Assembly (NCBI GenBank): GCA_048882505.1
Contig: JBHLRO010000006.1
Span: 25,485-89,484, forward strand
Reading direction: 5' to 3'
From: Candidatus Thorarchaeota archaeon
Lineage (GTDB): Archaea; Asgardarchaeota; Heimdallarchaeia; Hodarchaeales; Hodarchaeaceae
Length of the DNA stretch: 64,000 nt
Position numbers and translations under genes: made by a program. Positions 3,602 to 59,865 of the stretch are shown here, in pieces. Each line of letters opens with the position of its first letter. The stretch's first letter is position 1. The notes beneath the pieces are model-generated. The model had not been told where the DNA came from. It ran no database searches and worked only from the letters and a program-made list of their open reading frames with translations.

Positions 3602-4348
3602 ATGAATGATGGAAGTGAAGAAAGCTTAGATAAGGCAATCTTCGATGATCATTGGGAGTCGCTTCCTCCAGCAAAATCATTTGACATTAGAAACTACGAA
3701 GATCATCCGCTCCGATCAACAATTCTTCGTATATTATATGATGGGCTTTCTAATCAAGTACCAAGTGAGATCAAGAGAAAAAGGCATGTTCTCAACGCAT
3801 CTGAGATTCTTGAGGAACTCAACAAAAGAATTGAGGCGGGAAGGATAGTTGATTCCAAAAAAGGAAAGGAAACAACCTTAATAAAGCCTGTGAGTATTAC
3901 CAATCTCTACTTTCACCTAAATAAATTGATAGATTTAGGGCTTATCAAAGTAATAGCGGAATTACTTGAAGGATCCCACAAACGGAATAAAACAAAGTAC
4001 TATGGACGAGTGGCCAGGCATTTGTTTATCAGTGATGAAGAGGAATCCCTACAAAAATATAGACGTCTGTTTGACGCCTTTCAACGAGTCGTAATGGCTA
4101 TGGGTGTACCTCTTCCAGAAGATTATGAGAAACTACCAGTAAAATATCAAAGGATAAAAAACACTCGGTACAAGGCGATTGAGAACTGGTTCATCAAAAA
4201 TGAAAAGATTATATACGAAATCTCTGAACAAAACCGAGATTTAAGCGAAGTTTATGAGTTTTTGAAACTGATGGATTCGCATTTTAGTGATGCATACAGG
4301 GATCTATCATCCAGGTTTACGGAACTGATCCAACGAGAGCTTGGCTAA
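3602..4348 (+). CDS. hypothetical protein, possible winged-helix DNA-binding regulator
   Basis: 248 aa with no TM segments. The central segment ...SEILEELNKRIEAGRIVDSKKGKETTLIKPVSITNLYFHLNKLIDLGLIKV... resembles an ArsR/PadR-type wHTH (the 'HLxxL' recognition helix followed by a wing). This is a weak, pattern-only call. Confidence 0.4.
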   Translation: MNDGSEESLDKAIFDDHWESLPPAKSFDIRNYEDHPLRSTILRILYDGLSNQVPSEIKRKRHVLNASEILEELNKRIEAGRIVDSKKGKETTLIKPVSITNLYFHLNKLIDLGLIKVIAELLEGSHKRNKTKYYGRVARHLFISDEEESLQKYRRLFDAFQRVVMAMGVPLPEDYEKLPVKYQRIKNTRYKAIENWFIKNEKIIYEISEQNRDLSEVYEFLKLMDSHFSDAYRDLSSRFTELIQRELG

Positions 4349-4498
4349 ATCTGTACCCGTTTTTCTCCTCTCACTAAGGCCCCCACCGTCAGGTGAGCAT
4401 GGGTAAGAAGAAATTGTATATCTAGGTCTCACATACAACAAAAATCCCACCTCAAACTGGAGGTTTTAAGGATAGATAGTCCTCTGAAAACTAATGTC

Positions 4499-4975
4499 AT
4501 GATCAGAAACGCCCAGAGGAGCGATGCACAAGAAATACATCACATTCTATCCGAGGCATTTGAATCGTATCGTGAGTATTATACAGAGGAAGCATATAAG
4601 GCTACGATTCTTTCCCCTCCTGAAATCGCAACTCGAATTAGCACTAAAGAAATAGAAGTGCTTGTGGTCTTTTATCAGAATAAGATGGTCGGGACAGTTA
4701 CAATCAGATTGAAAAGAGCAGGCCAACTCCATATTCAAAGCATGGCGCTAAACCCTGACACTCAGAGGCAAGGAGTGGGGAATTATATGCTTGAAGAAGT
4801 GATTCGCTTGGGTAGGAAGAAACAAGTGAAAACTATCTCGCTTGAATGCTTTGAACCACTTAAGAAGGCCATAAACATGTATAAAAAGTTTGGATTCAAG
4901 AGAACGGGAAAAAAAAGAGATTTACATGGGAGTGAGGTCTTTGAGATGACCAAGACCCTAGAGTGTCATGGATAG
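4499..4975 (+). CDS. GNAT family N-acetyltransferase
   Basis: 158 aa. The acetyl-CoA-binding motif QRQGVGNYMLEEVIRLGRKKQVKTISLECFEPLKKAINMYKKFGFKRTG is the Q/RxxGxG/A core followed by the FGF motif. Confidence 0.75.
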   Translation: MIRNAQRSDAQEIHHILSEAFESYREYYTEEAYKATILSPPEIATRISTKEIEVLVVFYQNKMVGTVTIRLKRAGQLHIQSMALNPDTQRQGVGNYMLEEVIRLGRKKQVKTISLECFEPLKKAINMYKKFGFKRTGKKRDLHGSEVFEMTKTLECHG

Positions 4976-5701
4976 GAACAACTACCTATCAAGGGATCGC
5001 GGCCCCTGGTCCGTGTGATCTCAGAATGCAGCAGATCTGACAGTTTTCCTCGTGATCCTTATGCTTTTGGGCACCCCTCTTGTTACCGAAATGAATAGGT
5101 TGCTTCATCCCTAAGGAGATCCAAAGAACGAACAAGTATCAGTCAAGCTAATGCATCCCCATTAAAGGCAGAAGCAGCTCCTCCACGATGGAAATATCAA
5201 ACGGAAGGTGACATTTCCTTATCTAACCTTACGAATTTAGATACAGATGAAGACGAGACAAATTCGTGAAAAACTGAAACTAGAACGGTTCGCTGAAGAC
5301 ATCTAGAAGAAGATTTCAGGATTGAAAACCCGCATCTCTCTTTTTTTTAGCCCAAATATGCGCAATTTGTGGTTCAAATAAAGATAGATCACGGAAGTTC
5401 CTAACACAAACACACGGAATAGAGAGGTTTGGAATGCGGAGCCATGGATGATAATCAGATCCTAAACCGGAGATTGAGCGATGGTCTCTCCCTTGCTACT
5501 AGTCGACTTATATCTAGATACCTTTGACCATTCGGTGTTTGCTCTTCAATGCCTACCGGCTAACTCATCGCAAAGTGGGCGTTCTTAACTTTATACAGGT
5601 TTCATTATCCGAAAAATTTTTATACCATATCAGCCGTAAATGCGTGCATTTAACCGTTTTTTTTTCGAATGGTTAAATATGAGAGAAAGAGGTGAAACAG
5701 A

Positions 5702-6679
5702 ATGAAGTCCCAAAAAGTTATTCCAATAGCTTTTTTGATTGTGATCTGCTCTCTGGCGTTTGCTACGCAGATCCCAATGATGTTCGGCCTTCCAACCGAA
5801 GGAGGGGGGAGTGGCAGTCCATCATACCCAAGAGTTGATGGAAACACCTGGATGAATAAACAAACTAGACCAGGTGACGACCATTATGGAACCTATCTGT
5901 CTGGCGCCACAGGTTATATAAGCCCTTTGCCACACGTAGTTGAAGTCGATGGAGAAAATAGCCACGGGGCAATATCATTACAAGCTTCTATCGAACATTA
6001 TGCAGGTATTGGTAATTATGATGAAATTAGGGTTCGCTTTACAACATATTACAAATCAAAACTTCCTGATCCATCCTATCCCTCCGAAGCTGGCATTATT
6101 TACGGTCAAGGTGTCATAGTAGAAGAGGTGGAGGCAACAAATCTGCTTCAGGTAGTCTGGTTTCGTGATTATAACAAGGATCAATGGGCCTGGCCAAAAT
6201 ACTTGAAAAGCGGTCCCTCTTACGAGGCAGCTCGTATAAGTTTCAACCAGGAAGTCATAGATTGGGTAACGGGAGTAGCGGTGCTTCGTATACTTAGTCG
6301 TCTTGATCTTACTGGTATTGTTGAAACCGTGACAGATTATATTGTCGAAAGGACTGTCAAGGCAGCTTTTGAACCCCTTTTTGATGTTGGATATGCAGTA
6401 TATGGAAATTCTGGAGTAACTGGTTCAGATATCCAAGCACAATACGCTTTCATTAACGGAGGTGGCTATCCTTGGACCACCTATCAGTATTATGACCGAA
6501 ATTCCTATATAAACGAAGCTTCAACTCATCACTCTGCTGGTATTCGTATATTTGGAACCTTACCGAGCTATTGCACTCTGATCCGCGCTAAGGCGTATGT
6601 AGATTATTATCTCCCAAATTCCTATGGCGGCGGGATCGATACGATCTACTCCCCAATAATTCAGATATATCTGGTTTGA
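5702..6679 (+). CDS. secreted/extracellular protein of unknown function
   Basis: 325 aa. N-terminal signal-like sequence MKSQKVIPIAFLIVICSLAFATQIPMM, then a Gly/Ser-rich linker (GGGSGSPSYP), then a hydrophilic Tyr/Gly-rich body. An AGGAGA/GAGGTG ribosome-binding site lies upstream at 5686-5695. Confidence 0.5.
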   Translation: MKSQKVIPIAFLIVICSLAFATQIPMMFGLPTEGGGSGSPSYPRVDGNTWMNKQTRPGDDHYGTYLSGATGYISPLPHVVEVDGENSHGAISLQASIEHYAGIGNYDEIRVRFTTYYKSKLPDPSYPSEAGIIYGQGVIVEEVEATNLLQVVWFRDYNKDQWAWPKYLKSGPSYEAARISFNQEVIDWVTGVAVLRILSRLDLTGIVETVTDYIVERTVKAAFEPLFDVGYAVYGNSGVTGSDIQAQYAFINGGGYPWTTYQYYDRNSYINEASTHHSAGIRIFGTLPSYCTLIRAKAYVDYYLPNSYGGGIDTIYSPIIQIYLV

Positions 6680-6900
6680 TCAGGGCCAACATTTTCCCCT
6701 TTTTTTTCCAAACCTTTACGTACGGTTCAATGTAGGAATGAATTTCGACCGTTTGTGCTAGGTGTTGTTTAATCACGGCAGAGGTAGCTTGGCTGATTGG
6801 CTTTTGGGGAAACCTAAGTATAATTTTACTTTATTCCCTAATTGGAAGTCTCCTAGTTCGGAAGAGTCTGAAAGAACCTGAAAAACCCATCTATCTTCCC

Positions 6901-8298
6901 ATGTTTCTAGCAGGCCTAAGTCTATTCGCTTTTGCCGCGGTGGCCGTCTCGATTGTCCTACTCTATCTTCAAGAATTTCTTCTTAGATATGATCTAACAG
7001 AGGCTACAGCTATATGGCCTCTCTTCATTTGGTTAAGCAACCTTTTATTCACTAGTCTACTTCTCTTGTCACTTCTTAGTTATTATCATGGACCTAGGAA
7101 GAGTCCCGTAGTTATAGGACTACCGAGTATACTATTGCTCTTGGGATGTATGAATGGTTTTTGGGGTTTATCAAGATTCAATGTCTATTGGAGAGGCGGC
7201 AAAATTCTGGTTTATTATCTTGATAAGCAAGCAGAATTGATCAATTCTATCCTAATCATTCTGGCAATAGCAGGGAGCTTTTATCTGACTTCTAGCTCGT
7301 TTCTAGAGACAAAGGAAGATAGGGATCTTTGGTTGACGGTGGCCTTGCTAATCGCGCTCCTCGGTTTTTTTATCCCACGGACAGAAGCTTGGTCAATAAC
7401 GGATCCCGTCACAGTGAAAATATTAGGTTTTTTGGTTTATTATTCATTCTTGGGGTTTTTTATGATCGCCTGGCTGTATCCAAAACCCTTTGCTGTAAAA
7501 ACTAAGCAAATTATTGCAAAAATCACTCCAACATCCTTTAAAGACAATTTTCTCGACCAGTTACCTTTTCTCATTTATCACAAGAAAAAAATCCAAACCT
7601 TACTAATTATATCCACCATAGGCGTAGTGTTGACAATCTTTGGGCCGAGGCTGTTTGAAGGAAGCGTGAAAATTTACCTTACAGCAGCTCAAGCAGTAGA
7701 GGAAGGTCAAGCTTTCTTTCTTGGAATTGTTAATGGCCAACAAGTTTTTTTTCACACAATAGGAACTGTGGTTCCACTACTGGTTACCGCCGTTTTAATT
7801 ATCTTTGCTTTAGTAAGAGAAACACCGTGGCGTTCCGTGTTCTCTTATGGATTGAGTCTTTTCATTAGTCAAGTCTTACTTTCAATTTTCTTTAATCATG
7901 TCCTAAATCTGGAACGCGTAAATTACGAAGCGAATTCTCCTTTCATTTTGGGTTTTATTTTACCACCTTTGATAATTACCGTTTTAGTTTCATTTTTTGA
8001 CCCCATGGAAGATGAAACAATCTCGTTCTTCGAAAAGGTACGTCTAAAATGCATGCCTGAAGTTGTATATGGCTGCACGGTCTTATCTACGATAATGTTT
8101 GACACGTTCCTTTTTAATTCTCCTACTGGGAAGATACTGGTAGGGGGAGGAAGTATCACGGATGGAATCTTTGTACTACCGATTTTAAACGTCTTCCTGA
8201 TCCTGTTTACATATTCTCTTATCTCATTAATCATGGAAGTTATTTTCTCCAACAAAAAGGAAAACCAGGGGGAACAACCAAATCTTCGGTGTTCCTAG
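6901..8298 (+). CDS. polytopic integral membrane protein of unknown function
   Basis: 465 aa with at least 10 predicted TM helices and no soluble domain. Confidence 0.5.
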   Translation: MFLAGLSLFAFAAVAVSIVLLYLQEFLLRYDLTEATAIWPLFIWLSNLLFTSLLLLSLLSYYHGPRKSPVVIGLPSILLLLGCMNGFWGLSRFNVYWRGGKILVYYLDKQAELINSILIILAIAGSFYLTSSSFLETKEDRDLWLTVALLIALLGFFIPRTEAWSITDPVTVKILGFLVYYSFLGFFMIAWLYPKPFAVKTKQIIAKITPTSFKDNFLDQLPFLIYHKKKIQTLLIISTIGVVLTIFGPRLFEGSVKIYLTAAQAVEEGQAFFLGIVNGQQVFFHTIGTVVPLLVTAVLIIFALVRETPWRSVFSYGLSLFISQVLLSIFFNHVLNLERVNYEANSPFILGFILPPLIITVLVSFFDPMEDETISFFEKVRLKCMPEVVYGCTVLSTIMFDTFLFNSPTGKILVGGGSITDGIFVLPILNVFLILFTYSLISLIMEVIFSNKKENQGEQPNLRCS

Positions 8299-9033: not shown

Positions 9034-10632
9034 TTGAAAAGAGGTATTTTACTTTCAATAGTGATTGTAGTTTTTATCAACACTGCTTATTTCCCTGCGG
9101 CATTGAGGATTGAATCCAGCGACCTAGAAACAAGCTCACTTGATTCAGTTCCCGTTTCCGGAAGGTTTGCCTTGCTTTCCCTCCAAAACCATAATCCCAT
9201 CTATATAACTGGAAATCAAGATTTTATTGCTCAGGCGACCGCGGAAGGGTGGCAAGGAAACGGCACTGAGGGTTCTCCTTATCTTATCACAGGATTTCAG
9301 ATTTACGGAACTGGCAATGGTATCCCTGGAGACCCTTTTAATCCTCCTCCTATTGATTATTCCTCTCCAACCCGATTTTTGATTAATATAAAGGATGTTG
9401 ACCTCCATTTTCGGATTACTGATTGCTCGTTGGTTGGAGCGGGGACTTATGGTATTTATCTCGAAAACGTGACACATGCTGCAATCCTTTCAAATAAAGT
9501 CACCCGAAGTGATAGGGATGGAATTCGTTTAGAAAGGTGTCTGAATAGTACAATAAATGACAATCTTGTGTATTCCAATAGTTTAAGAGGAATTGATCTG
9601 AGAGGAACGAATAGCAGCGAGATTTCAAACAATAGTGCGTATTCCAACGGAGTCAATGGCATTTATCTGGGGGGATCATGGAATAATACTGTATCAAACA
9701 ACGTTGCCCACTACAATCTCTGGCATGGAATCAGTATCGATTCCTTGGCCAATTATAACTCCATTATGAAAAACACAGTGTACCAAAATGCTAGAGTAGG
9801 AGTAGGTCTGTGGGGTCAGAGTAATTACAATGTCTTAAGCGAGAACTACATTTATGACAACGAGGAGAGTGGTATTTCCCTCTTTAGCTCCGATTATAAT
9901 GTTATTCTTTTCAATACGATACATGGCAACAATGAAGGATTTTCAAGTTATGAAACGGGCAGCAACACGATTAAACATAACGAAATCGCGTACAGCAACT
10001 ATACAGGTTTATATCTTTTCGAATCAAAAGACGCGATTCTCTTTAATAATACCGTTTTTGAGAATGAGGAAGGTCTTATCTTAAGCCTCGCATGGAATAC
10101 TTCGGTTTCCTTCAATCTTATATCCTTTAACCGACATAATGGCATGGTCATTGATGATTCGGAAAATAACAATGTCAACAACAACCAAATTTCCAACAAT
10201 GGAGAACATGGTGTGGTTATTAACGCTGAAGCTGTTGGTAACGTCATTACTAACAACGAAATCATGGGAAATGGGGGGTATGGGATTTGGACTGAATCAT
10301 TGGAAAATACGATTGCAGATAATGAAATAGCGGAGAATGGGGGTGAAGTTACCACTTATACTGTTATTTCCTCTCCCCAAATAGTACCTCCTCTTCAATT
10401 GTGGATTCTATTATTCCTAGTATTGATTGGTGGCTCTTCGGTTACCATTATCGTTTCTATCGCTCGCAGATCCCGTAGGTCTCCTGTCTATTCGTGGAAG
10501 CCCCCGTCTGAAACTCGATCTTTAAAATACCCAAGTGGGAGGGAAAACCATCCTAAATTTTGTCCTAACTGCGGGGTAGCAACTGCTCCTAAGGATATTT
10601 TTTGCATGTCCTGTGGCAGTCTCTTGGTTTAA
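9034..10632 (+). CDS. right-handed parallel beta-helix (PbH1/NosD-like) repeat surface protein with C-terminal TM anchor and cytoplasmic zinc-ribbon
   Basis: 532 aa with an N-terminal signal/TM segment (ILLSIVIVVFINTAYF). The N-terminal motif IYITGNQDFIAQATAEGWQGNGTEGSPYLITG is shared with the 36525 and 44263 ORFs. It carries at least 12 copies of the ~22-aa repeat 'N.I..N...GI.L..S..N.I' (e.g. NNSAYSNGVNGIYLGGSWNNTVSNNVAHYNLWHGISI). A TM helix LWILLFLVLIGGSSVTIIVSIA is followed by RRSRRS and a C4 motif CPNCG...CMSCG. Confidence 0.7.
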   Translation: MKRGILLSIVIVVFINTAYFPAALRIESSDLETSSLDSVPVSGRFALLSLQNHNPIYITGNQDFIAQATAEGWQGNGTEGSPYLITGFQIYGTGNGIPGDPFNPPPIDYSSPTRFLINIKDVDLHFRITDCSLVGAGTYGIYLENVTHAAILSNKVTRSDRDGIRLERCLNSTINDNLVYSNSLRGIDLRGTNSSEISNNSAYSNGVNGIYLGGSWNNTVSNNVAHYNLWHGISIDSLANYNSIMKNTVYQNARVGVGLWGQSNYNVLSENYIYDNEESGISLFSSDYNVILFNTIHGNNEGFSSYETGSNTIKHNEIAYSNYTGLYLFESKDAILFNNTVFENEEGLILSLAWNTSVSFNLISFNRHNGMVIDDSENNNVNNNQISNNGEHGVVINAEAVGNVITNNEIMGNGGYGIWTESLENTIADNEIAENGGEVTTYTVISSPQIVPPLQLWILLFLVLIGGSSVTIIVSIARRSRRSPVYSWKPPSETRSLKYPSGRENHPKFCPNCGVATAPKDIFCMSCGSLLV

Positions 10633-12002: not shown

Positions 12003-12509
12003 TTATCTTTCTTTATAAGGCCAAAGAGGTTTGTTCTGAAAGCTCCTTCCAAAATATCGCCTCATTATTGCAATTAAGGTGATAGTGCCAGCTAGCCCTC
12101 CTAAAACAATAGAAAGAAAATCTAATGGGAAATTAAAGACCATACTTACGGTAAGCCATATCGAGTAATAGAGCAGCCCCATAAATAGTGCATTTGCGTT
12201 TCTTAGCCAATCTTTATCAAAAATGCCAAAGGCCTCAATGGCAATGAGAGCATCATATCCCTGGGCAGTAAGTTCGTAATCCCCCTGAGCATTAGTTTGG
12301 ACAAGAACGCCAAGTTTGGTTAAATGATGACTCAGATTCCCACTGCTTGACAAACCCATCCTAGATTTTAGTTTTGAGAATCCTAGTGTCTCTTTTGCTA
12401 GCGATTTTAGTATTCGTATTCTAGTCGGGTGGGAGATAGCTTCAAAGAGTTCTGCTGCTATGCTTTCTTTTTCGAAGTTTCTTTGCTCTTCGGGTAGTTC
12501 ATCAGCCAT
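12003..12509 (-). CDS. ArsR-like winged-HTH transcriptional regulator with C-terminal membrane anchor
   Basis: 168 aa. The N-terminus ELFEAISHPTRIRILKSLAKETLGFSKLKSRMGLSSSGNLSHHLTKLGVLV has the ArsR/SmtB pattern (xxPxRxxIL ... SxHLxxL). The C-terminus has two TM helices (LLYYSIWLTVSMVF, LSIVLGGLAGTITLIAIM). Confidence 0.55.
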   Translation of the reverse strand: MADELPEEQRNFEKESIAAELFEAISHPTRIRILKSLAKETLGFSKLKSRMGLSSSGNLSHHLTKLGVLVQTNAQGDYELTAQGYDALIAIEAFGIFDKDWLRNANALFMGLLYYSIWLTVSMVFNFPLDFLSIVLGGLAGTITLIAIMRRYFGRSFQNKPLWPYKER

Positions 12510-13813: not shown

Positions 13814-16720
13814 TTATTCTGCTTTCAAGATGTGGCTAATGTCCCGCTTCGATGCCAGATAGGCAGGAACCAGGCTACCGATGCTTGCGATTCCAACTAC
13901 ACCTAGGATTAAGGTACTTAGGAATTCCAAGGGTAAATCTAGAACAAACGGGACATTTTGGAACCCTACCGTAAATAGACGTAGAACTATCGTGGAATAG
14001 AATAGGCCCGTTATAAGTCCGATAACCACTCCAAACACCATAACCAATCCTCCTTCTAATATAAAAGATAATGCGAGTTGACTGCGTGTCATGCCTAGTG
14101 CTCTCTCAACTCCAATTTCCTGATTCCGTTCAATAAGGGTAAAGAAGGCAAACATGGTTATCGAGATCACGGCTATACTGATTCCGACTATGAGATTGGA
14201 ATTTAGTACCGAGAGCAGAAATCGTCGAAGAAAGGATCTCAGATAAGTTCGATATCGAAGAAGGGGAGATTCGATGTCCCAGTTCGTAGGGAGTCTGATT
14301 TGTGTGATCAATTCCGCAGGATCGGCATCAGGCTTCAAACTCATCAGATATCCACTAAACCAATATTCGGGTTCCAAGAACTGCGTCTTATTCAAGACAT
14401 CGAACAGTCCTAAACTGCCCACTCCCCAATAGTAGGTAGATTCCTCGGCGATTTCAGGATCGGCATCGAGCTGAGGCCAATAGAGGAATGTGCCTATTAT
14501 CCCTAAGGATATTGTCTCTGTTTCATTATCATCTGACCAGGTCAGGGGAAACTGTCTGCCGATTTGATATTTCGGGAACATTCTGGAATTTCCCTCATAC
14601 AAAATGATTGAGTTATTGTCCATGATTCCTTGCATGAGATCTGCCAAGGAGGCGCTTAAACCAAAATTATGTTCATCAAAATAAGCTGCTGATAAGAAAG
14701 TCGCGGGATCGACGAACAGGAAAGTCATACTTGGACTAGTTTTCCCAGAAGTAAATGTTCGGATGAACGCTGAAACAGAATCAATATTATTCGACTCGCT
14801 GATCTGGGTTTTTAATGTGTTATTAAGATAGGTGTAGTCTGAGGAAACCCGAACATCAGCACCAATCGACGAATAAGCAAACTGATAATTGAAACTATCA
14901 TAGAAATAAGAAAAACTCCCTAAAAACACGGTGTAGGTCAGGACCAGGGTAACAACTATGACCGTTCGGTTTGCAGGATACTTGTGACGCACTACATTTT
15001 TCAATGCAAATGCAGGAACGCCCCCAGAGAGCTTCCAAAGCAAGCCAGCCAAAAGCATACTCAAATAGGGAAAAACCCGCGATAAGAGAAAAATTCCCCC
15101 AATTAAAAGGAAAAAAGGGGCGGGGATAATTAGAAATGGAGCTATTTCGTACAAAAGAGCGGGTATTTGTTCCGGGCCCAGAGAAAACAAGGTAAAGATG
15201 AGGAACAATCCAGCCAGGCCGAGAGCAGTTGCCCAGATGTCCAAATAATATCGATTCCAAAAGGGAGCACGTTTTTCTACTGGATCTTCAGATCCTACGA
15301 TTGACATCCGAGCAAGACGGATTATGGTAAAAAAATGGGAGACAACCGCAAGTATAATTCCCCAAAATACCAAATCTTGAATACTTCTTTCTGAAACTCG
15401 TACCTCGCGCTCCTCGCCGATAAAATTGAAGAGATCGACCGATCTGACGGTTATTCCTGTTAATAGATATCCCAGGATGAGTCCACCAACCATGGCAAAC
15501 AGAATGCCCACCAGGGTCTCCCCGAGCAGCCCCATCAAAACCTGCCAAGACGTCCCACCCCGAGTTTTTATGATACCGATTTGTTTTTGTCGTTGTCGTC
15601 TAATCAGTCCGTATGAATAAACAACCAAATAAAGGGCAACCCCGAGCATGGGTATGGTGAAGACAAAGAATAGTGCTCCATACATCGAAATGGCATATCT
15701 AACTTGCGTCAATCGAGCTCTAAAGCGGTCTAAAAAACTGATTTCAAAGCCACTTCCGCCGAAACTCTCTTCAAGAGTAAGTTTGAACTTTTGAACCCTG
15801 ATAATTTCTTCATCTATCGCAAAAGCGTCAATCTGAGTATAATCCAGGAAAAGTTTCCCCTTAGCTGCACCTCGAATCTTGAGGGACCCATTTGTAGGAT
15901 TAAGATGATCGACTAGAGCGGTAACCAGCTGGGGGGAGGTGACAAGGAAATTGAGGGAATATTCAAAATCCCCCCTTTCCTCCCTAAAATAGTTATATAT
16001 CAAGATAGTTGAAAGATCAGGAGGAGTGGGATTATTCCACGGGATTTCCTGATATTCTAAAACCCCCACGACTGTTAGCGTCACGTTATGAGAAACGGGG
16101 AGCCCTGCAGATGGAGATAAGCTGATTTTGAAGTGCTGACCGATTTGTACCCCAGAAGGATAAAGCTTCTCCCAACGTGGACCCCATTGGAAGCCATCAC
16201 CTCCCATATAATTGACAAAAACGATTTCGCTATAGTTTTGGGGCCAGCGGCCCTTGAGGAACGATTGGACCTGGGATCTAAACTCTTGGTCAGGGATTTC
16301 TAAAGCTAGATCATAAGCAATTTCCTCCCCAGTTTGATTCTGGTAAAATAAATTAAAAACGTCAATGGTCGAATGCCAATACTGTTGGCGTAGATACCTT
16401 TGATAATTTGCATCGACAAGGGAATGGGTGGTCAAATCGCGTAATCCTGTAGTATTTGTCCAGGTACTAATCTCCGGTGGCGAGGATCGGGTCGCTTGGA
16501 TCCGAAGATCACCGATAAGATGGCCTCTTTCGCTCCAACCAAAGCTGGCCTCGGAAAAAAAATCTTGGCGGAATGAATTCAGTAACATAGTATCTTCTGA
16601 AATCACAGATAAAGCGATGATCAATCCGATGAGTGAGACTAGGACAGCTTTCCAACTCCCTCGAACAAAATCTGCTGTAAAAGAAATATGATCCATGAAT
16701 CGTGAAAGATTCCACCTCAT
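13814..16720 (-). CDS. ABC-transporter permease with two FtsX-like domains (MacB/YbbP-type)
   Basis: 968 aa. There are two membrane modules. One has ...LGVALYLVVYSYGLIRRQRQKQIGIIKTRGGTSWQVLMGLLGETLVGILFAMVGGLILGY. The second has ...ERNQEIGVERALGMTRSQLALSFILEGGLVMVFGVVIGLITG (FtsX 'EIGxLKAxGA' core). A large extracytoplasmic domain sits between the TM bundles. No ATPase gene is adjacent in the window. Confidence 0.7.
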   Translation of the reverse strand: MRWNLSRFMDHISFTADFVRGSWKAVLVSLIGLIIALSVISEDTMLLNSFRQDFFSEASFGWSERGHLIGDLRIQATRSSPPEISTWTNTTGLRDLTTHSLVDANYQRYLRQQYWHSTIDVFNLFYQNQTGEEIAYDLALEIPDQEFRSQVQSFLKGRWPQNYSEIVFVNYMGGDGFQWGPRWEKLYPSGVQIGQHFKISLSPSAGLPVSHNVTLTVVGVLEYQEIPWNNPTPPDLSTILIYNYFREERGDFEYSLNFLVTSPQLVTALVDHLNPTNGSLKIRGAAKGKLFLDYTQIDAFAIDEEIIRVQKFKLTLEESFGGSGFEISFLDRFRARLTQVRYAISMYGALFFVFTIPMLGVALYLVVYSYGLIRRQRQKQIGIIKTRGGTSWQVLMGLLGETLVGILFAMVGGLILGYLLTGITVRSVDLFNFIGEEREVRVSERSIQDLVFWGIILAVVSHFFTIIRLARMSIVGSEDPVEKRAPFWNRYYLDIWATALGLAGLFLIFTLFSLGPEQIPALLYEIAPFLIIPAPFFLLIGGIFLLSRVFPYLSMLLAGLLWKLSGGVPAFALKNVVRHKYPANRTVIVVTLVLTYTVFLGSFSYFYDSFNYQFAYSSIGADVRVSSDYTYLNNTLKTQISESNNIDSVSAFIRTFTSGKTSPSMTFLFVDPATFLSAAYFDEHNFGLSASLADLMQGIMDNNSIILYEGNSRMFPKYQIGRQFPLTWSDDNETETISLGIIGTFLYWPQLDADPEIAEESTYYWGVGSLGLFDVLNKTQFLEPEYWFSGYLMSLKPDADPAELITQIRLPTNWDIESPLLRYRTYLRSFLRRFLLSVLNSNLIVGISIAVISITMFAFFTLIERNQEIGVERALGMTRSQLALSFILEGGLVMVFGVVIGLITGLFYSTIVLRLFTVGFQNVPFVLDLPLEFLSTLILGVVGIASIGSLVPAYLASKRDISHILKAE

Positions 16721-17006: not shown

Positions 17007-18959
17007 TTGAGGTATCTTCGAGGTGCCGTGGGTGAAGAACGGAGAGTGTTGGGTATGATTAAGAGAGAGTTACTGGGCAGCTTCCTACTGATCATGTTGA
17101 CTCTCTTTTGGATTCATTCCCCCTTCTTACTTGGAGACACTCAGGAAGGTCGGATTTTTCGAGATTACGAATGGTACTACGAGAATTTTACCACGGAGGA
17201 TCGCAAGAAAATCCGCCAAGCATTCGATTACTCGATTCCTCGAGTTCAAATCATCGAGGATCTCCTGCAAGGTATTGGGCAGGCCGTTGCGACACCCCTG
17301 TTGGCAAATCAATTGGGATATAACTCAACCATTGTGCCCAGGGATTTGAATAAGACAAAAGCCTTAGATCTTATGGAAGAGGTCTTTGGTTTCCGGTTCA
17401 ATGATTCGGTGGAAGACCCCGAAGATGACGACAGGTATTTTCAAATGGTCCTCATTACGTTGGCTACACGCCAAGATCGGATTAAATGGGCGGCTAGTAT
17501 TACGGAGGCACTTGGAGAAATCGGGGTAGAAATTTTTCTTAAATACGGGAATCGGAACGTTTTCGAACCCCGTGTTTTAGATCCAGATCCTGAAGTAGCC
17601 GGAAAAGACTATGCCCATGGCGGGATGGATGGGTATTTCATGGGCTGGGAAGTTAACTCCGATCCCGACCTTACACCTTGGTTTTTAAAGGCCGCTCAGG
17701 CACCAAACGGGCAAAATGCCCACTACATCGAGGATACTACCATAGAAGAGATCCTCAACCGAACATTGAGCAACCGTGACCCCCAAAAACGCTTAGATGC
17801 CCTCCAAGAATTCCAACAATGGTTTTTCAACGAGAGTCCATTCTATATGGTACGCGAAGGGATGAACATTATCGCTTCTGATCCGGCCCTGAGAGGCGTT
17901 GACATAAGTGGGCAGTTGTATCCCAACTACGGCAACTGGAGCCATGCCAACCAAACCACTGTGACTGTCCATTCCCTGGGAAGGTTCATCGATATAAACC
18001 CCATTGTGTCCATTTCGTATTTTGATAAACTTGCTACAGCTGGGGTCTTTGAAGGGCTCCTCGGTCGGTTCCCCGGGAAAGAGGAGCCTTGGCATGGGAT
18101 CCTCGCAAAAAGGTGGACGCACAGCCCTGATGACTTGGTCTGGGAGGTATCGATTAAGGAGGGTATTCAATTCTCCAATGGGGCCAATTTAACTGTAGAT
18201 GACGTGGTTTTTTCCTATCAGCGAGTACTTGATCCTGATGTAGGATCAGCACTCCGTGGAGCGTTCACTTTCTTCAATGAAGATGCCGTGGAAAAAATCA
18301 ATGCCACGGCCGCACGGTTCACGTTTAACGGGTTCTGGCCCTATGCAGAAAATTACTTGAGTCGTGTTCCGATCGTTTCCGAGGCAGAAATGAGCCAATT
18401 GAGCGATACTGGATGGGATTATGATTATATCAATTCGGAAAAGGCGCCCATAGGATCAGGACCATACAAAATAGACCCCTCTTATCTTTCAGCTCAGGAA
18501 GTTCATCTTGTCAAAAACCTTTACTACAACGCGACCTTACGGGGACACAATCCAGAAAATGGAATCTGGTACCCAAACCCTTCGATCGACACTATTGTGG
18601 TCAAATTCTACGATAAATTAACCACCGCAATCGGGGATCTCCAAAACGATACAGTGGACATCATTGATCCACACACATTTCTTGTCCCTTACTTGGACAC
18701 CATTAATGGCAGTAGTTGGGCGAAACTGAGTCTTACCCCTGCTTATGAATTCGAAGCCCTTTTTCTTAATCATTACAGTCCCATTTGGGGATTAAATCCC
18801 GCAGATCCGTGTGAGATGTATCCTGGATATTGTGATGATTACCCGTTTGATAGTCCGTTAATTGAGTCTTTCAATGCTTTATTAACGGGGGTACTTGTTA
18901 TTTTGCTCGTTAGCTATTTCGTTCTCGGGCTTTTTATGGTCAAAAAGCGCAGATCTTAG
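17007..18959 (+). CDS. ABC transporter substrate-binding protein, family 5 (Opp/Dpp-like), circularly permuted, C-terminal TM anchor
   Basis: 650 aa. Family-5 SBP motifs are present but in swapped order. The C-lobe motifs come first (KIRQAFDYSIPRVQIIEDLLQGIG, ITEALGEIGVEIFLKY, FMGWEVNSDPDLTPWF, DPQKRLDALQEFQQWFFNESPFYMV). The N-lobe motifs follow (WEVSIKEGIQFSNGANLTVDDVVFSYQRVLDP, GSGPYKIDPSYLSAQEVHLVKNLYYN, DTVDIIDP). The C-terminal TM helix is LLTGVLVILLVSYFVLGLFMV followed by KKRRS. The likely true start is the internal M at about 17055 (MIKRELLGSFLLIM...). Confidence 0.7.
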   Translation: MRYLRGAVGEERRVLGMIKRELLGSFLLIMLTLFWIHSPFLLGDTQEGRIFRDYEWYYENFTTEDRKKIRQAFDYSIPRVQIIEDLLQGIGQAVATPLLANQLGYNSTIVPRDLNKTKALDLMEEVFGFRFNDSVEDPEDDDRYFQMVLITLATRQDRIKWAASITEALGEIGVEIFLKYGNRNVFEPRVLDPDPEVAGKDYAHGGMDGYFMGWEVNSDPDLTPWFLKAAQAPNGQNAHYIEDTTIEEILNRTLSNRDPQKRLDALQEFQQWFFNESPFYMVREGMNIIASDPALRGVDISGQLYPNYGNWSHANQTTVTVHSLGRFIDINPIVSISYFDKLATAGVFEGLLGRFPGKEEPWHGILAKRWTHSPDDLVWEVSIKEGIQFSNGANLTVDDVVFSYQRVLDPDVGSALRGAFTFFNEDAVEKINATAARFTFNGFWPYAENYLSRVPIVSEAEMSQLSDTGWDYDYINSEKAPIGSGPYKIDPSYLSAQEVHLVKNLYYNATLRGHNPENGIWYPNPSIDTIVVKFYDKLTTAIGDLQNDTVDIIDPHTFLVPYLDTINGSSWAKLSLTPAYEFEALFLNHYSPIWGLNPADPCEMYPGYCDDYPFDSPLIESFNALLTGVLVILLVSYFVLGLFMVKKRRS

Positions 18960-21923: not shown

Positions 21924-22553
21924 TTGGTAAAGGTTTTTGAAGGAGGAGAACCCCTCAAAATTGAACAGGTGGAAGAGCTGAACATAGACGAAATAATCCT
22001 CAAGATCTGCTCTATCGGTGATTACCAGGTGGGTAAAACCAGTCTTATTCACAGATATGCAGAGAATGTATTCAGTGAAGATTATTTACCTACCTTGGGG
22101 GTTGATATTACTACGAAACGTATTATTGTAGATGATACACCGATTAAATTGATTTTAATGGACACAGCAGGACAGGAACAGTTCGGTCGTATTCGTCGGT
22201 CGTATTTCCTAGGATGTGCAGGTTGTCTGATTGTCTACGATGTTACAAGGCGCGATTCTTTTGAATCTCTGGAACGATGGGTCAGAGAGTTTCGTTCCGG
22301 ACAACAACGAGAGAACAAGCCCATTGCGATTATAGGGAATAAGAACGATCTTAAGCAGGAGCGTCAGGTCGGGCGGCAGGAAGGGGAATCGTTTGCCAAG
22401 GTCATGGCAAATGTCTCCTTTTACGAATGTTCGGCGAAACTAGGGGGTCCTGAAATCCCCAGAATTTATGAAAATATTTCTCGTCAATACCTCAAATCGG
22501 TTCAATCGGGGCGGAATAGGGGGGACAAGGAACCGACTATGGTAACCCGATGA
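21924..22553 (+). CDS. Rab/Ras-like small GTPase
   Basis: 209 aa. Motifs: G1 GDYQVGKTSL, switch I LPTLGVDI, G3 DTAGQE, G4 GNKNDL, G5 ECSAK. The start is uncertain (TTG at 21924; a GGAGGAG ribosome-binding site sits at 21942-21948). Confidence 0.85.
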   Translation: MVKVFEGGEPLKIEQVEELNIDEIILKICSIGDYQVGKTSLIHRYAENVFSEDYLPTLGVDITTKRIIVDDTPIKLILMDTAGQEQFGRIRRSYFLGCAGCLIVYDVTRRDSFESLERWVREFRSGQQRENKPIAIIGNKNDLKQERQVGRQEGESFAKVMANVSFYECSAKLGGPEIPRIYENISRQYLKSVQSGRNRGDKEPTMVTR

Positions 22554-23676: not shown

Positions 23677-24564
23677 ATGAGCAGGATGACCACTCCAAGT
23701 GGAATTTATAGCGTGATGATATACAGCCTAGAATCACGTCGCATTCTCATTCATCGAATATATTCTCGGGATGAATCTGTGGTTAATAATCTAGACACGC
23801 TTTATTCAACCATTGTGTCCTTTAAAGGTGAAAACGAGGGGAAAGAAGATGTGTCAACGTTTCCAATGAAAACTAGAAAAATCTTAATTACTTCCGCTGA
23901 AAACTTAATCTTCATGATTGTGGTTGCACCCCATTATGGAACTATCGAAGCGGAAAAAATCCTATCTCATATCAGGGCATCATTTTTCCGTAAATATCCT
24001 CTTGGTGATTGCAACTGGCATTTTGATGAACACATGAACTATCTCGTGGGATTTAAAGCCGTCATAGATGAGATAGTGGAACACTTCGGCGACCCAAAGA
24101 CCATAGTAAAAATCGTGCTGATGGGAATAGACTACGCGGGCAAAACGACGTTAACACATGCTTACGCGGGGAGTAATTATCGAGATTATCTCCCTACAAT
24201 GGGACTGGACATTCTAAGAATAGAATACAAGAATAAACACATTCGTTTATGGGATCTTGGCGGGCAAATGCTGTTTAGAAGCTTATGGCCTAAGTTTGCG
24301 AATGAAGCATCTGGAATAATTTTTGTCGTTGATTCAGCCACAACCCGGTGGAGCGAAACCAAAGAAGTATTTGAAATCTCTCTGCTGTTTAAATTACCCT
24401 ATATCATATTTGCTAACAAACAGGATATAGTAAAACGAGCACAAAGCATTAACTTCATTGCGGAGAGGTTACAAGTTCCTGAAGAAAAAATAGTAAAAGG
24501 GAGTGCTTTATTGAACAAAGGGATCTATGAAGTCTTAGATGGGTTACTGGATGAAATTGGTTGA
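23677..24564 (+). CDS. Arf-like small GTPase with N-terminal longin/roadblock-like domain
   Basis: 295 aa. The N-terminal ~135 aa show beta-beta-alpha-beta-beta-alpha-like alternation (IYSVMIYSLESRRILIHRIY / VVNNLDTLYSTIV / ILITSAENLIFMIVVAP / TIEAEKILSHIRASFF). The C-terminal G-domain has G1 GIDYAGKTT, switch I PTMG, G3 WDLGGQ and G4 ANKQD, which are the Arf/Arl-type forms of these motifs. Confidence 0.8.
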   Translation: MSRMTTPSGIYSVMIYSLESRRILIHRIYSRDESVVNNLDTLYSTIVSFKGENEGKEDVSTFPMKTRKILITSAENLIFMIVVAPHYGTIEAEKILSHIRASFFRKYPLGDCNWHFDEHMNYLVGFKAVIDEIVEHFGDPKTIVKIVLMGIDYAGKTTLTHAYAGSNYRDYLPTMGLDILRIEYKNKHIRLWDLGGQMLFRSLWPKFANEASGIIFVVDSATTRWSETKEVFEISLLFKLPYIIFANKQDIVKRAQSINFIAERLQVPEEKIVKGSALLNKGIYEVLDGLLDEIG

Positions 24565-26822: not shown

Positions 26823-28067
26823 TCAAAATTCATAGAGGCCCCAACTGGCCGAGACTGTTCTCGGTTGTTGATCCACATGGATTCGTATGATTCTAGAGAA
26901 CCCGAAAACGTTTCCTAGACCTGTTAATAACCCTTCGATAACCCCTATAATTAGAAGTGAGCTTCCTTCTCGTGGTATCTCGATGTCTACCTGCATTCCA
27001 CCAGCAATATTACTTATTTCCACCCCAATTAGCTGATGAACTGGTTTATCCAGCATTTTACCTATATTTCCAGATAACCAATCCCTGAAGATATTGTTTG
27101 CCAGACTTTCGCCATAAGGAACGGAGAGCGCCTTAATTTTTTTCCAAAACTCTTTCGAGTCCGATTCAGGAGCTAGCTCTCCAGATAGGGTTTTCCATAC
27201 GTGGTTCTGAGTCTCAAAGAATATCGAACTTCTTAAAACATTGATCAATAGATCTTGGGGAATCATTCGGGCTAGAATTCGCATGAAGGCCAAGTAAAGA
27301 GAATCATCCAAGATGGAAGAAAGGAATACAGAATAACGGGGCCAGATAAACAGACCTTTAAAAGCCTTTAAGAAGTCTAAGAGATTGGGTTGGAGCTCGC
27401 TCACCTTGTTAGGATCATACTTATGAGCTAATAATCCGATGAAGGGCGATTCCTTCATTGCTTTGAGAACATTCATAATATCGGTTAGGTAAATGTACGC
27501 CTCTTCGAATTCGGCTGGGTTTTGGATATCAACCATGAAAATTAATGCTGTTAGGTTTTTCCACTTAAATTCGTCATAAACATGTTTTTTTACGTATTCC
27601 GTCTGTCCGCCTAAATCAAAAATGGTTAATTCAGTTTTTAAAACGTCTATGAACGAATTAAAAATAGAATAATCGACAGTTGGTCTGATCCTATCCAACT
27701 GTTCTTTGTTCCAGGAATCAAAAAATCCACGAATGGCTGTGGTCTTTCCTGCTTTTCTTAATCCTGCAACAACTATTTTAGGAAGTTTCCTCCTGGGTTT
27801 CTGAGAGGGAGGTGCGGGCAATTTGAATTCATGCGTAAACCATTCATCGAAAAACGAGTCAACTTTCTCTGTAACCTCAGGTGTAATGAAATCCAACTCT
27901 TGGTCTTTGAATCGCTCTTCAATACTATTCCCCAGATTTTCAATTATCGGATAGAGATCGTCCGAACTAGTACCTAGTGGAGTCATGACTGAGACCAGTA
28001 CAGAAGCGAACCTTTTTACATGTAGTTGGGAATTTGAAAAAACAAGCTCCTGAATGTCATCTTTCAC
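26823..28067 (-). CDS. Rag/Gtr-like small GTPase with C-terminal roadblock-like domain and N-terminal extension
   Basis: 414 aa. Motifs: G1 VVAGLRKAGKTT, G3 FDLGGQ, G4 LAHKYD. The HKxD form of G4 (instead of NKxD) is diagnostic of the Rag/Gtr family. The C-terminal ~150 aa carry a roadblock-like strand/helix pattern (VHQLIGVEISNIAGGMQVDIEI...SSLLIIGVIEGLLTGL). There is an N-terminal extension of about 95 aa. Confidence 0.7.
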   Translation of the reverse strand: MKDDIQELVFSNSQLHVKRFASVLVSVMTPLGTSSDDLYPIIENLGNSIEERFKDQELDFITPEVTEKVDSFFDEWFTHEFKLPAPPSQKPRRKLPKIVVAGLRKAGKTTAIRGFFDSWNKEQLDRIRPTVDYSIFNSFIDVLKTELTIFDLGGQTEYVKKHVYDEFKWKNLTALIFMVDIQNPAEFEEAYIYLTDIMNVLKAMKESPFIGLLAHKYDPNKVSELQPNLLDFLKAFKGLFIWPRYSVFLSSILDDSLYLAFMRILARMIPQDLLINVLRSSIFFETQNHVWKTLSGELAPESDSKEFWKKIKALSVPYGESLANNIFRDWLSGNIGKMLDKPVHQLIGVEISNIAGGMQVDIEIPREGSSLLIIGVIEGLLTGLGNVFGFSRIIRIHVDQQPRTVSASWGLYEF

Positions 28068-44262: not shown

Positions 44263-45570
44263 ATGGAGGGCAATTGCTTAGGCCTAACTGAACGTATACG
44301 CAATGTCAAAGAGAAGGAATGGGAAAAATTCAATATGAGCATAAGAAAACGGCGCGAAATTTTTCACAATGGGATCATTCTAATTATCCTGGTCCTATCG
44401 CTGGTTGTTCAGAGTTTCACTAGTGTTTATACGTTTGCCCTACGAAGTTCAGACTCTTATATAGTTCATCCCCCAATCGTTATCGTCGGTAACCAAAATT
44501 TTTTGACACAAGCATCAACAGAGAACTGGCTGGGAGACGGGACACCTGCGTCTCCGTACACTATTGAAGGTTTAAATATCACCAGTCCGCTAGACACCAG
44601 CTTGATAGATATCAGAAATACGGATGTGTTTTTTCACATCGCCAATTGCCTGCTAGATGGTGGGGCATATGGTATAAAGCTGGATAACGTGACTAACGGG
44701 CAGATTTCAGGTAATGTTATCAACCATAATTTGGGAAACGGAGTTCAGCTAGATCTCGGAAAAGCTACCAACATATCCAATATCATAAGCGATAATCGTG
44801 GAAGGGGAATAGACGTAAATTTTTCGGACAATAGTACTATTACGGGCAATACAGTAGGCAATAACGGTGAACATGGCATACGTATGGATGATTCGCGTGG
44901 AAGTACCATTGCGGGGAACACTTTCAGAAATAATGGAGGTATCGGAATTGTAATAGGTACTTCTGGTAAGAGTACCATAGTAAACAATACCATTATCTCC
45001 AATGGAGCTGATGGTATTAGTCTAGAAGCTTCAGAAGATAGTGTTATAACAGGAAATCGCGTCGAAGATAACAGAGTCGGCATTCGCCTGTCGATTTCGG
45101 ATAATAGCTCCATTTGGGGGAATGTGATTACCATAAATCGGATTTCTGGCTTGGCTCTCGATAACTCGGATGATAGTACCATTTCAGGCAATAACATAAC
45201 TTTTAATCGTGGGTACGGTATCTACTTGGATGACACAGACAATACGATTGTCAAATGGAACTACTTCATCAGTAACAATTCAACAGGAGCCTCACAAGCG
45301 TTTGATGATGGTACTAACAATATTTTCGACAATAATTACTGGGATGAATGGATTAGGCCAGATAATGATCAGGATGGCGTGGTCGACCGAGCTTACCCTA
45401 TTGATGGACTAGCTTCCAATCAGGATGGCGCTCCCCGAGCATCACCTAAGGCCGCTTCCAGGGAGGGAATCCCTTCTCACATAATTCCAGCCTTAATTGT
45501 TTTAATGGGAATTCTCAGCTTTTTAGGAATTTCTGTATTGATCCAAGGACGAAAACGATCAGATCGGTAA
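44263..45570 (+). CDS. right-handed parallel beta-helix (PbH1/NosD-like) repeat surface protein with C-terminal TM anchor
   Basis: 435 aa. N-terminal TM/signal ILIILVLSLVVQSFTSVYTF. Motif IVIVGNQNFLTQASTENWLGDGTPASPYTIEG. More than 12 beta-helix repeats (NISNIISDNRGRGIDVNFSDNSTITGNTVGNNGEHGIRM...). C-terminal motif NNIFDNNYWDEWIRPDNDQDGVVDRAYPIDG. TM helix IIPALIVLMGILSFLGISVLI followed by QGRKRSDR. Confidence 0.7.
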   Translation: MEGNCLGLTERIRNVKEKEWEKFNMSIRKRREIFHNGIILIILVLSLVVQSFTSVYTFALRSSDSYIVHPPIVIVGNQNFLTQASTENWLGDGTPASPYTIEGLNITSPLDTSLIDIRNTDVFFHIANCLLDGGAYGIKLDNVTNGQISGNVINHNLGNGVQLDLGKATNISNIISDNRGRGIDVNFSDNSTITGNTVGNNGEHGIRMDDSRGSTIAGNTFRNNGGIGIVIGTSGKSTIVNNTIISNGADGISLEASEDSVITGNRVEDNRVGIRLSISDNSSIWGNVITINRISGLALDNSDDSTISGNNITFNRGYGIYLDDTDNTIVKWNYFISNNSTGASQAFDDGTNNIFDNNYWDEWIRPDNDQDGVVDRAYPIDGLASNQDGAPRASPKAASREGIPSHIIPALIVLMGILSFLGISVLIQGRKRSDR

Positions 45571-58776: not shown

Positions 58777-58830
58777 GGACCTCGAAGGTTTAATACATCA
58801 TTTCACTCAAAGAGTGCTATTATAATGGAA

Positions 58831-59769: not shown

Positions 59770-59865
59770 TTTGAGGTTTTTAACCTCTAATAAAGTCTTT
59801 TGCGTGGTGAATCACCTTCTTCTGCTTCATGTAACCTGTAGCCCGATCTTGTTGAGAGAAATTTG

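Follow-up and report, generated by a model that had tools for sequence, protein, structure and literature searches.

Probable circular permutation of two family-5 solute-binding proteins encoded by a Candidatus Thorarchaeota archaeon

Results

Two binding proteins with their halves in reversed order

We analysed a stretch of 64,000 nucleotides of DNA from Candidatus Thorarchaeota archaeon (assembly GCA_048882505.1, contig JBHLRO010000006.1, positions 25,485–89,484 of the forward strand; hereafter the window). It carries two SBP_bac_5 genes, ORF1 and ORF2, both of which very probably encode complete family-5 (cluster C) solute-binding proteins (SBPs) with a circularly permuted mature domain. 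The signal peptide and the C-terminal anchor of both proteins lie outside the permutation, and only two internal blocks are exchanged.

ORF1 occupies positions 17007–18959 of the plus strand and, read from the TTG codon at 17007, encodes 650 amino acids in an uninterrupted frame. The ATG at 17055 is the more probable start, as the family alignment shows no conservation of the first 16 residues; the resulting protein of 634 amino acids (17055–18959) agrees with the public annotation of this protein (P0001, 634 amino acids, from a Candidatus Thorarchaeota metagenome-assembled genome). ORF2 spans 61381–63108 of the minus strand and encodes 575 amino acids, also without interruption. No other SBP_bac_5 gene was found in the window. 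Hydropathy analysis placed hydrophobic segments at both termini of each protein, starting at residues 22 and 616 in ORF1 and at residues 11 and 544 in ORF2.

The Pfam profile SBP_bac_5 (PF00496, cut-off 32.4 bits) matched ORF1 with 140.3 bits and ORF2 with 274 bits, each in two stretches that follow one another in reversed order. The NCBIfam models gave the same picture for ORF1, with residues 66–304 corresponding to Opp4A 316–547 and residues 345–591 to Opp5A 42–252. Among PDB sequences, ORF1 residues 331–508 aligned with 5za4 23–188, and residues 65–125 with 5za4 259–319 and with DppA (1dpp) 277–337; in ORF2, residues 210–540 aligned with 5u4o 45–361 and residues 58–176 with 5u4o 376–489. 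We also built a canonical profile of 518 positions from 135 canonical homologues. Against this profile, ORF1 residues 67–300 matched positions 288–503 (E = 6e-23) and residues 313–554 matched positions 30–247 (E = 7e-29), whereas ORF2 residues 42–205 matched positions 351–517 (E = 2e-40) and residues 204–545 matched positions 29–351 (E = 1e-113). The two ORF2 blocks tile positions 29–517 of the profile without gap or overlap; ORF1 covers positions 30–247 and 288–503, and positions 248–287 form a variable region.

An earlier, sequence-only reading of this DNA had located second-half motifs at ORF1 residues ~65–275 and N-lobe motifs at ~365–550, and had proposed a circular permutation shared, with a different break, by a paralog at 61381–63108. 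The motifs are indeed found at these residues, the PF00496 search returned no single collinear match, and the permutation holds for both genes against Pfam, NCBIfam, PDB sequences and our own profile. The break points do differ, falling at 247/288 in ORF1 (type A) and at 350/351 in ORF2 (type B). The ORF2 break separates "AGYp" (position 350) from the strand "gfkltl" (position 351), so that the cut lies in a surface loop of lobe 2, after the "dpekAkqLLaeAGYp" helix. Both proteins therefore belong to the PF00496 family and contain a complete single set of the fold segments, but neither shows the collinear chain order of domain I/II, domain III and the C-terminal strand of domain I.

Conservation of the reversed orders

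The ORF1 order was identified in at least nine homologues besides its own public entry, at 35–45% identity and from NCBI, JGI, ENA and Logan assemblies. It was also present in ~23 full-length representatives of 50%-identity clusters and at 11 loci in GTDB species-representative genomes of Promethearchaeota and Hodarchaeota, each genome carrying two or three paralogues. The ORF2 order was observed in five clusters at 76–78% identity on several contigs, one of the proteins (P0055) being encoded on six. Comparison of ORF2 with the P0055 gene gave 0.11–0.15 non-synonymous differences per site in both blocks and saturated synonymous differences (0.76–0.80), which indicates purifying selection on both blocks.

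Because the source is a metagenome-assembled genome, we considered whether the order could be an artefact, that is, a mis-assembly, a chimeric contig or a gene call bridging two partial tandem genes. However, the identical order recurs across several Asgard lineages and in independent assemblies drawn from four data sources, and each ORF is unbroken, with a signal peptide at one terminus and an anchor at the other. Purifying selection on ORF2 and the six contigs carrying P0055 point in the same direction. Since both orders recur among homologues from separate assemblies, assembly error is excluded, in agreement with the sequence-only reading, and the chance of an artefact of any of these kinds is close to nil.

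ORF2 and its canonical counterpart

The nearest relatives of ORF2 beyond its own small clade, P0057 and P0058 from uncultured archaea, have the canonical order. ORF2 and P0058 are ~64% identical and align in three parts: residues 1–39 with 1–39 (36%), residues 42–209 with 384–553 (67%) and residues 205–553 with 42–390 (63%). The ORF2 gene (all features on the minus strand) accordingly begins with a predicted signal peptide (residues 1–39, ending VKA/A; 62992–63108), similar to that of P0058. This is followed by block B (residues 42–204; 62497–62985), corresponding to canonical positions 351–517, and by block A (residues 205–546; 61471–62496), corresponding to canonical positions 29–351. A C-terminal anchor composed of a PSF-E-F motif, a hydrophobic helix and a basic tail (61384–61470) completes the protein and is the counterpart of the PGF-type anchor of its relatives. 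The layout of linker, PGF-type motif, hydrophobic helix and basic tail is common to ORF2 and P0058, and the anchor sequences read "IPGFGFEGALAAIALILGIGLLRRPKKRK" in P0057, "APGFETPIVLITMILVVSLG..RRKSKK" in P0055 and "TPSFEFPLVMIALALMMGKK..KLKKKN" in ORF2. P0057 and P0058 thus share with ORF2 63–67% identity in both blocks, a homologous signal peptide, the PGF-type anchor and the same M19 and DppD neighbours, and differ in the order of the internal blocks, canonical residues 384–548 preceding residues 41–383 in ORF2. At the new B-to-A junction (DAY/SETSNDT), the native C-terminal tail runs straight into the native N-terminal one.

The canonical gene (locus L001) and the permuted genes (the window, L002 and L003) also share their neighbourhood, with a divergent M19 gene upstream and a DppD homologue (72–73% identity) downstream. 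In the window, the former is a partial Peptidase_M19 (dipeptidase) gene at 63363–64000 of the plus strand, cut by the window end; the same arrangement is seen in L001 and L002. More distant relatives of ORF2 are all canonical (P0059 at 45% identity, ~100 others at 30–40%), and the canonical order is therefore ancestral for the ORF2 clade. The identity of 63–67% to a canonical protein in the same gene neighbourhood shows that the swap is recent, and the ancient event proposed in the sequence-only reading does not apply to ORF2. The gene would have changed from signal peptide-A-B-anchor to signal peptide-B-A-anchor, with the native tails joined and new ends created elsewhere. With the export signal and the anchor keeping their places, the tether would leave the protein from a different point, in ORF1 as well as in ORF2.

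A segment of 55 nucleotides located ~38–91 nucleotides past the ORF2 stop codon (~61290–61343, minus strand) is 78% identical to L001 ~4088–4141, compared with ~68% for the coding regions. Lying between the binding-protein gene and DppD, it may be a conserved terminator or a regulatory element.

We also examined whether the C-terminal "SFEFPLV" of ORF2 is what remains of a second copy of the N-terminal strand "RFEFTLF", the DNA cores of the two being identical at 12 of 14 positions. This was rejected because close relatives carry PGF[DE][FT] at this position, matching the anchor of P0057 and P0058; the DNA identity is explained by shared F-E-F codons.

ORF1 and the hinge

Each half of ORF1 is ~30% identical to canonical proteins, and among the homologues collected here the ORF1 subfamily was encountered only in Asgard archaea. 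The ORF1 swap is an older event, in a subfamily other than that of ORF2. On the plus strand, the gene begins with a predicted signal or anchor segment (17055–17141), supported by a hydrophobic core at residues 22–40 (ORF numbering), the family alignment and a modelled helix at residues 2–25. Block 1 (17169–17906) starts with the conserved W-Y-Y-x-N and comprises lobe 2 (domain III) and the last strand of lobe 1, corresponding to canonical positions 288–503. The junction from the canonical C-terminus to the canonical N-terminus lies at residues ~301–312 (17907–17942), according to the profile match. Block 2 (17943–18806), delimited by the family alignment, profile and model, comprises lobe 1 (domains I and II; positions 30–247), the strand leading to the hinge, and the conserved SPIWGxNPxDP with a Cys-x6-Cys pair. 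Hydropathy and the model place a hydrophobic helix with the basic tail KKRRS, the presumed membrane anchor, at 18852–18956.

The closest relatives with canonical order, P0202, P0205 and P0208, are 23–30% identical to both halves of ORF1 and, between profile positions 247 and 288, contain an insertion of 45–100 amino acids that includes a cysteine pair. In the ORF1 family, the C-terminal end reads "...LNHYSPIWGLNPADPCEMYPGYC" before the linker and anchor, and the start after the signal peptide reads "EWYYENFTTEDRKKIRQAFDY". These end motifs are contiguous in P0202, P0205 and P0208, as in "...SPIWGFNPLDP...C..C...WFYNALTSTDRLAIRKA..." and "...QEMGLNQRSPIWGFNPLDP..C..C....DEWFYNALTSTDRLAIRKAIDY...", and for this reason we place the ORF1 cut inside the hinge insertion. 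An apparent similarity between the N-terminal "WYYEN" and the C-terminal "LFLNHY" strand was evaluated as a duplication and rejected, because P0202, P0205 and P0208 carry each motif once, in sequence, within the hinge insertion.

ORF1 residue 65 aligns with DppA residue 277, which puts the cut at approximately DppA 260–268, where the chain passes from domain I into domain III in the first hinge strand; the DppA domain limits are here taken to be 1–33/183–262/479–507, 34–182 and 263–478. Cluster C proteins feature a two-strand hinge flanking domain III (PMC7312458, PMC8566422). As the cut maps to the first of these two strands, the lobes of ORF1-type proteins are expected to be linked by one covalent crossover rather than two, with the anchor leaving the protein at the hinge.

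A C-x6-C pair ("DPCEMYPGYC") follows the NPxDP motif in ORF1 (residues ~592–600, window 18780–18806), P0002 and P0004, and a cysteine pair is similarly positioned within the hinge insertion of the canonical-order P0202 and P0208. The pair probably forms an extracellular disulfide loop.

Predicted structures and membrane anchoring

AlphaFold2 models were computed from alignments of natural permuted relatives only. The mean predicted local distance difference test (pLDDT) score and predicted template modelling score (pTM) were 88.3 and 0.84 for ORF1, and 83.9 and 0.81 for ORF2. The junctions are ordered in both models: pLDDT is 78–93 across the ORF1 junction, 93 for the N-terminal strand RFEFTLFY of ORF2 and above 90 for the SPIWG...Cys segment of ORF1. 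The C-terminal hydrophobic segments of both proteins are modelled as helices. Foldseek searches of the PDB returned cluster C proteins only (DppA, NikZ, AppA and others), with probability 1.00. The alignments covered 235–281 columns for ORF1 (target-normalised template modelling scores of 0.32–0.44) and ~346–400 columns for ORF2 (0.46–0.59), and no solved structure in the PDB aligned in order beyond about half the length of ORF1 or two-thirds of that of ORF2. Such partial coverage is expected when a sequential aligner meets a permuted chain. The structure prediction suggested in the sequence-only reading thus yielded confident models and matches to DppA, although Foldseek aligned only part of each chain.

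Based on these models, we consider it highly likely that both proteins adopt the extracytoplasmic, membrane-tethered "Venus flytrap" of the cluster C (DppA/OppA/NikA) fold. Two points weigh against this view of a tethered flytrap. The fold assignment of the permuted chains derives from AlphaFold models, and predicted C-terminal processing is not borne out by the sorting-signal models, for which the ORF1 tail gave no match and the ORF2 tail reached 12.1 bits (E = 0.2) against a cut-off of 24. The cut-offs are 24 for NF045529 (Heimdall-CTERM), 19.9 for NF033507 (Loki-CTERM) and 24.5 for TIGR04126 (PGF-CTERM); the tails of P0010, P0055 and P0058 scored 17–23 bits on the Heimdall-CTERM and Loki-CTERM models, slightly below the cut-offs.

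A C-terminal anchor is ordinary among archaeal binding proteins of the Opp class, that of the relatives being similar to the PGF-type Heimdall-CTERM and Loki-CTERM sorting signals, and TIGR04281 is a curated model for PGF-CTERM-anchored binding proteins. Elferink and colleagues reportedly described C-terminal anchoring of Opp-class binding proteins in Sulfolobus in 2001. Of the membrane anchor noted in the sequence-only reading, the hydrophobic helix and basic tail of ORF1 were recovered, but the anchor is no part of the permutation.

The models also bear on whether these proteins are permuted at all, as opposed to chimeras in which the C-terminal part of one binding protein is joined to the N-terminal part of another, perhaps without forming a single canonical fold. 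This was raised by the authors of the study on TpMglB-2 for their own protein, in which the moved part is poorly conserved (PMC4990184), and the age of the ORF1 event means that a single source gene is not provable. However, the two ORF2 blocks are almost equally similar to P0058 (63% and 67%) and tile it exactly, and P0202, P0205 and P0208 match both ORF1 halves with contiguous end motifs. Each chain is, moreover, modelled as a single compact fold. We therefore regard a chimeric origin as very improbable and retain circular permutation as the explanation.

Spread, independent origins and route of the swaps

When 1.84 billion cluster representatives were searched with an ORF1-family profile, 665 matched at E < 1e-30. 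Chain order was classified in 321 proteins, comprising the best 150 of these 665 matches, the homologues collected earlier, ORF1 and ORF2; this is not an unbiased sample. It contains 23 full-length proteins of the ORF1 type (break 247/288), 58 of the ORF2 type (break 350/351), one of a third type (P0196, break 401/407) and two of a fourth (P0212 and P0246, break at ~170–189), together with two proteins, P0172 and P0173, that contain two ORF1-type modules in tandem. A profile search of a word-indexed protein collection yielded no ORF1-type sequences past the first ten. A separate break near position 405 was considered and rejected, since all candidates except P0196 proved to be ORF2-type proteins with weakly aligned first 60 residues. 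The P0246 gene is located at L008 8001–9827, and the nearest relatives of P0212 and P0246 include the ORF2-type P0214 and the canonical P0220, at ~50% identity. P0212, encoded on a short contig, begins at the break with residue 2 and is possibly truncated.

The ORF2-type break occurs in Heimdallarchaeaceae (P0230) and Bathyarchaeia (P0214, P0291), and also in P0013, a bacterial-looking lipoprotein with a lipobox and no C-terminal anchor, encoded in a GntR-SBP-OppB-OppC-OppD operon. P0279, likewise of the ORF2 type, is encoded within an OppB-OppC-SBP-OppD-OppF operon. The presence of P0279 and P0013 in such ATP-binding cassette (ABC) transporter operons indicates that permuted proteins are still transporter components in several lineages. 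ORF2 is 15–25% identical to other proteins with its break and 64% identical to canonical P0058, and P0013 has canonical proteins as its nearest neighbours; since ORF2 and P0013 are each nearer to canonical proteins, the ORF2-type loop has been used at least three times independently. The swaps of ORF1 and ORF2 are independent as well, as the two proteins belong to different subfamilies and ORF2 is 63–67% identical to a canonical protein and 15–25% to proteins with the same break. They are consequently not two copies of one permuted gene, as the sequence-only reading had called them. A neighbour-joining tree with parsimony gave ~10 order changes; deep nodes (distance > 1.5) are unreliable, and nearest-neighbour evidence was used instead.

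In the canonical-order P0017 and P0029, an additional PF01471 (peptidoglycan-binding) domain is inserted at approximately position 351, in the same loop as the ORF2-type break, which suggests that this loop is generally permissive.

Most likely, the swaps would have arisen when an internal tandem duplication produced A-B-A-B and the outer copies, A at the front and B at the end, were then lost. Natural permutations are commonly taken to arise by duplication and subsequent deletion, and clean junctions and the tandem two-module proteins of the ORF1 subfamily fit this route. P0172 (1524 amino acids) and P0173 (1217 amino acids) each contain two complete ORF1-type permuted modules, so that in-frame duplication of a whole module does occur in this subfamily; the P0172 cluster includes a member annotated as Promethearchaeota. 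Weighing against this route, we found neither a duplication intermediate nor leftover duplicated residues at any of the junctions. Terminal profile overlaps in P0214 and P0316 were considered as duplication remnants and rejected as Ser/Thr-rich linker or anchor sequence aligned by chance. A one-step swap, in which an internal segment was moved by non-homologous cut-and-paste or half genes were split apart and fused again, would account for the missing intermediates and equally for the clean junctions. Given the accepted route for other permutations and the existence of P0172 and P0173, we think such a swap unlikely, if worth keeping in mind, and favour duplication and deletion.

Gene context and possible roles

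ORF2 heads a minus-strand operon of DppD-DppF-DppC-DppB-MmgE/PrpD-NicX-like genes. The importer genes (56820–60912) comprise DppD (59866–60912), DppF (58831–59769), DppC (57853–58776) and DppB (56820–57902), in an order identical in L002 and L003. From this neighbourhood, ORF2 is most likely the tethered receptor of the downstream DppBCDF-type importer. Its ligand is probably a dipeptide or similar small molecule, judged solely from the neighbouring M19 dipeptidase genes, of which L002 has four upstream of the binding-protein gene and a fifth between DppB and MmgE/PrpD. MmgE/PrpD and NicX-like genes follow DppB in the window (54402–56802, minus strand) and in L002 (14194–17679), and in view of these genes the imported substrate may be something other than a plain dipeptide.

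Linkage to DppBCDF-type permease and ATPase genes, present for ORF2, is lacking for ORF1 and for every examined member of its subfamily. We inspected 16 loci, 13 of type A (the window, L004–L006 and L009–L017, with L018 and L019 partial) and three related ones (those of the sister P0202, L022 and L023, and of the fusion P0180, L024), and identified no OppB or OppC gene within ~6 kb at any of them. This counts against a transport role for ORF1, which is left without genomic support. The ORF1-type proteins P0180, P0182 and P0197 are fused to Beta_helix/NosD, CARDB, PKD or fn3 domains, and beta-helix genes lie within 6.5 kb of an ORF1-type gene at four of ~13 loci, namely the window (9034–10632), L004, L009 and L013. 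NosD or right-handed beta-helix genes were located at 9034–10632, 36525–39395 and 44263–45570 of the window (plus strand), L004 10584–12845, L009 ~6065–7174 and L013 ~3619–5112.

ORF1 is most likely a surface-anchored ligand-binding module that feeds a distant permease or works with beta-helix surface enzymes. A stricter version holds that ORF1-type proteins are transport-independent binding modules beside beta-helix (NosD-like) extracellular enzymes, or sensors. The missing OppB and OppC genes, the three fusion proteins, the four loci with nearby beta-helix genes and the tandem modules of P0172 and P0173 would all fit such a role. On the other hand, orphan binding proteins that use a remote permease are common and at least one DppBCDF-type system is encoded in the same window; the window contains three beta-helix genes, so that adjacency could be due to chance, and adjacency was seen at only four of the ~13 type A loci. 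We consider the transport-independent role plausible but the less probable one, and keep the broader description of ORF1 as a surface-anchored ligand-binding module.

Small GTPase genes (Ras, Arf and RagA-like) are located a few kb from ORF1 at 21924–22553 (plus), 23677–24564 (plus) and 26823–28067 (minus). Two Ras-family genes adjoin the ORF1 homologue P0007, and GTPase loci were also seen at L005 4188–5355 and L006 2325–3525. A gene with DUF7347 and helix-turn-helix (HTH) domains recurs at window 12003–12509, L005 11092–11679 and L006 9264–9821. The recurrence of both may reflect partial synteny or just the GTPase richness of Asgard genomes. Divergent from ORF1, the minus strand encodes at 13814–16720 a protein of 968 amino acids with two FtsX-like permease domains (MacB-like); the window ORFs scanned included no neighbouring ABC ATPase gene.

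Discussion

Binding proteins of ABC importers are the textbook case of the hinge-bending model and are widely engineered as biosensors, often by artificial circular permutation. The natural break points described here mark at least two sites at which the cluster C fold tolerates new ends, and ORF1 suggests that a protein can have its hinge covalently cut and still be conserved and selected. ORF2 and P0058, ~64% identical and with a common locus and common partners, differ in chain order, and they form a matched pair in which the influence of connectivity and tether position on folding, hinge dynamics and permease docking can be compared directly. The ORF1 subfamily constitutes a lineage-specific family of Asgard surface proteins. 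Publicly, permuted proteins are labelled "ABC transporter substrate-binding protein" or "hypothetical protein", and profile tools report them as two partial matches; their recognition calls for annotation that takes domain order into account.

Every permuted protein that we examined is tethered, by a C-terminal anchor or through a lipobox. As speculation, the moved tether point could itself be a selected trait. A bolder and tentative synthesis, which we think rather doubtful, is that archaeal family-5 proteins were permuted repeatedly, at no fewer than four breaks, one of which recurs in a large Heimdall/Bathyarchaeia clade and a bacterium as well as in the ORF2 clade, that the tether was moved each time, and that ORF1 is a single-crossover flytrap that left ABC transport to serve beta-helix enzymes. 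If so, selection would have acted on tether position and not on the ligand, and ORF2 and P0058 would offer a natural matched pair for relating chain connectivity to hinge dynamics and permease docking.

In the literature, most subscription journals being outside our reach, we came across engineered sensors and TpMglB-2 but no naturally permuted protein of the OppA/DppA/NikA class. TpMglB-2 (Tp0684) of Treponema pallidum is a natural circularly permuted glucose-binding protein of cluster B, for which a "cluster Bc" was proposed; its authors considered permuted homologues to be probably all tethered and raised adaptation to tethering as a possibility (PMC4990184). It resembles ORF1 and ORF2 as a membrane-tethered ABC-type ligand-binding protein with a natural permutation. 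It differs in belonging to cluster B (type I), its first three N-lobe strands having been relocated to the C-terminus, whereas ORF1 and ORF2 belong to cluster C. Its permutation adds a fourth hinge crossover, whereas that of ORF1 would remove one; and its moved part is poorly conserved, whereas ORF2 has a canonical counterpart at 64% identity and represents a recurring event.

The archaeal anchored proteins of the Opp/Dpp class share with ORF1 and ORF2 a signal peptide, an extracellular domain, a C-terminal hydrophobic helix and a basic tail, but have the anchor attached at another part of the fold. Canonical DppA, OppA and NikA share the PF00496 family, all profile segments and the predicted bilobed fold, and in the case of ORF2 also the DppBCDF partners; ligand residues of DppA include R383 and D436 (PMC12136057). 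They are unlike ORF1, whose chain runs through domains III-I and then I-II-I, and unlike ORF2, in which late III-I is followed by I-II-I-early III. The canonical cluster C hinge has two strands (PMC7312458, PMC8566422), whereas ORF1 would retain a single crossover and is not linked to a transporter operon. ORF1 and ORF2 are therefore a new topological variant of a well-known family and not a new kind of system. What they add to this family are independent events, a canonical counterpart of ORF2 at the same locus, a recurring break point, and in ORF1 a hinge-cut subfamily that stands free of transporter operons.

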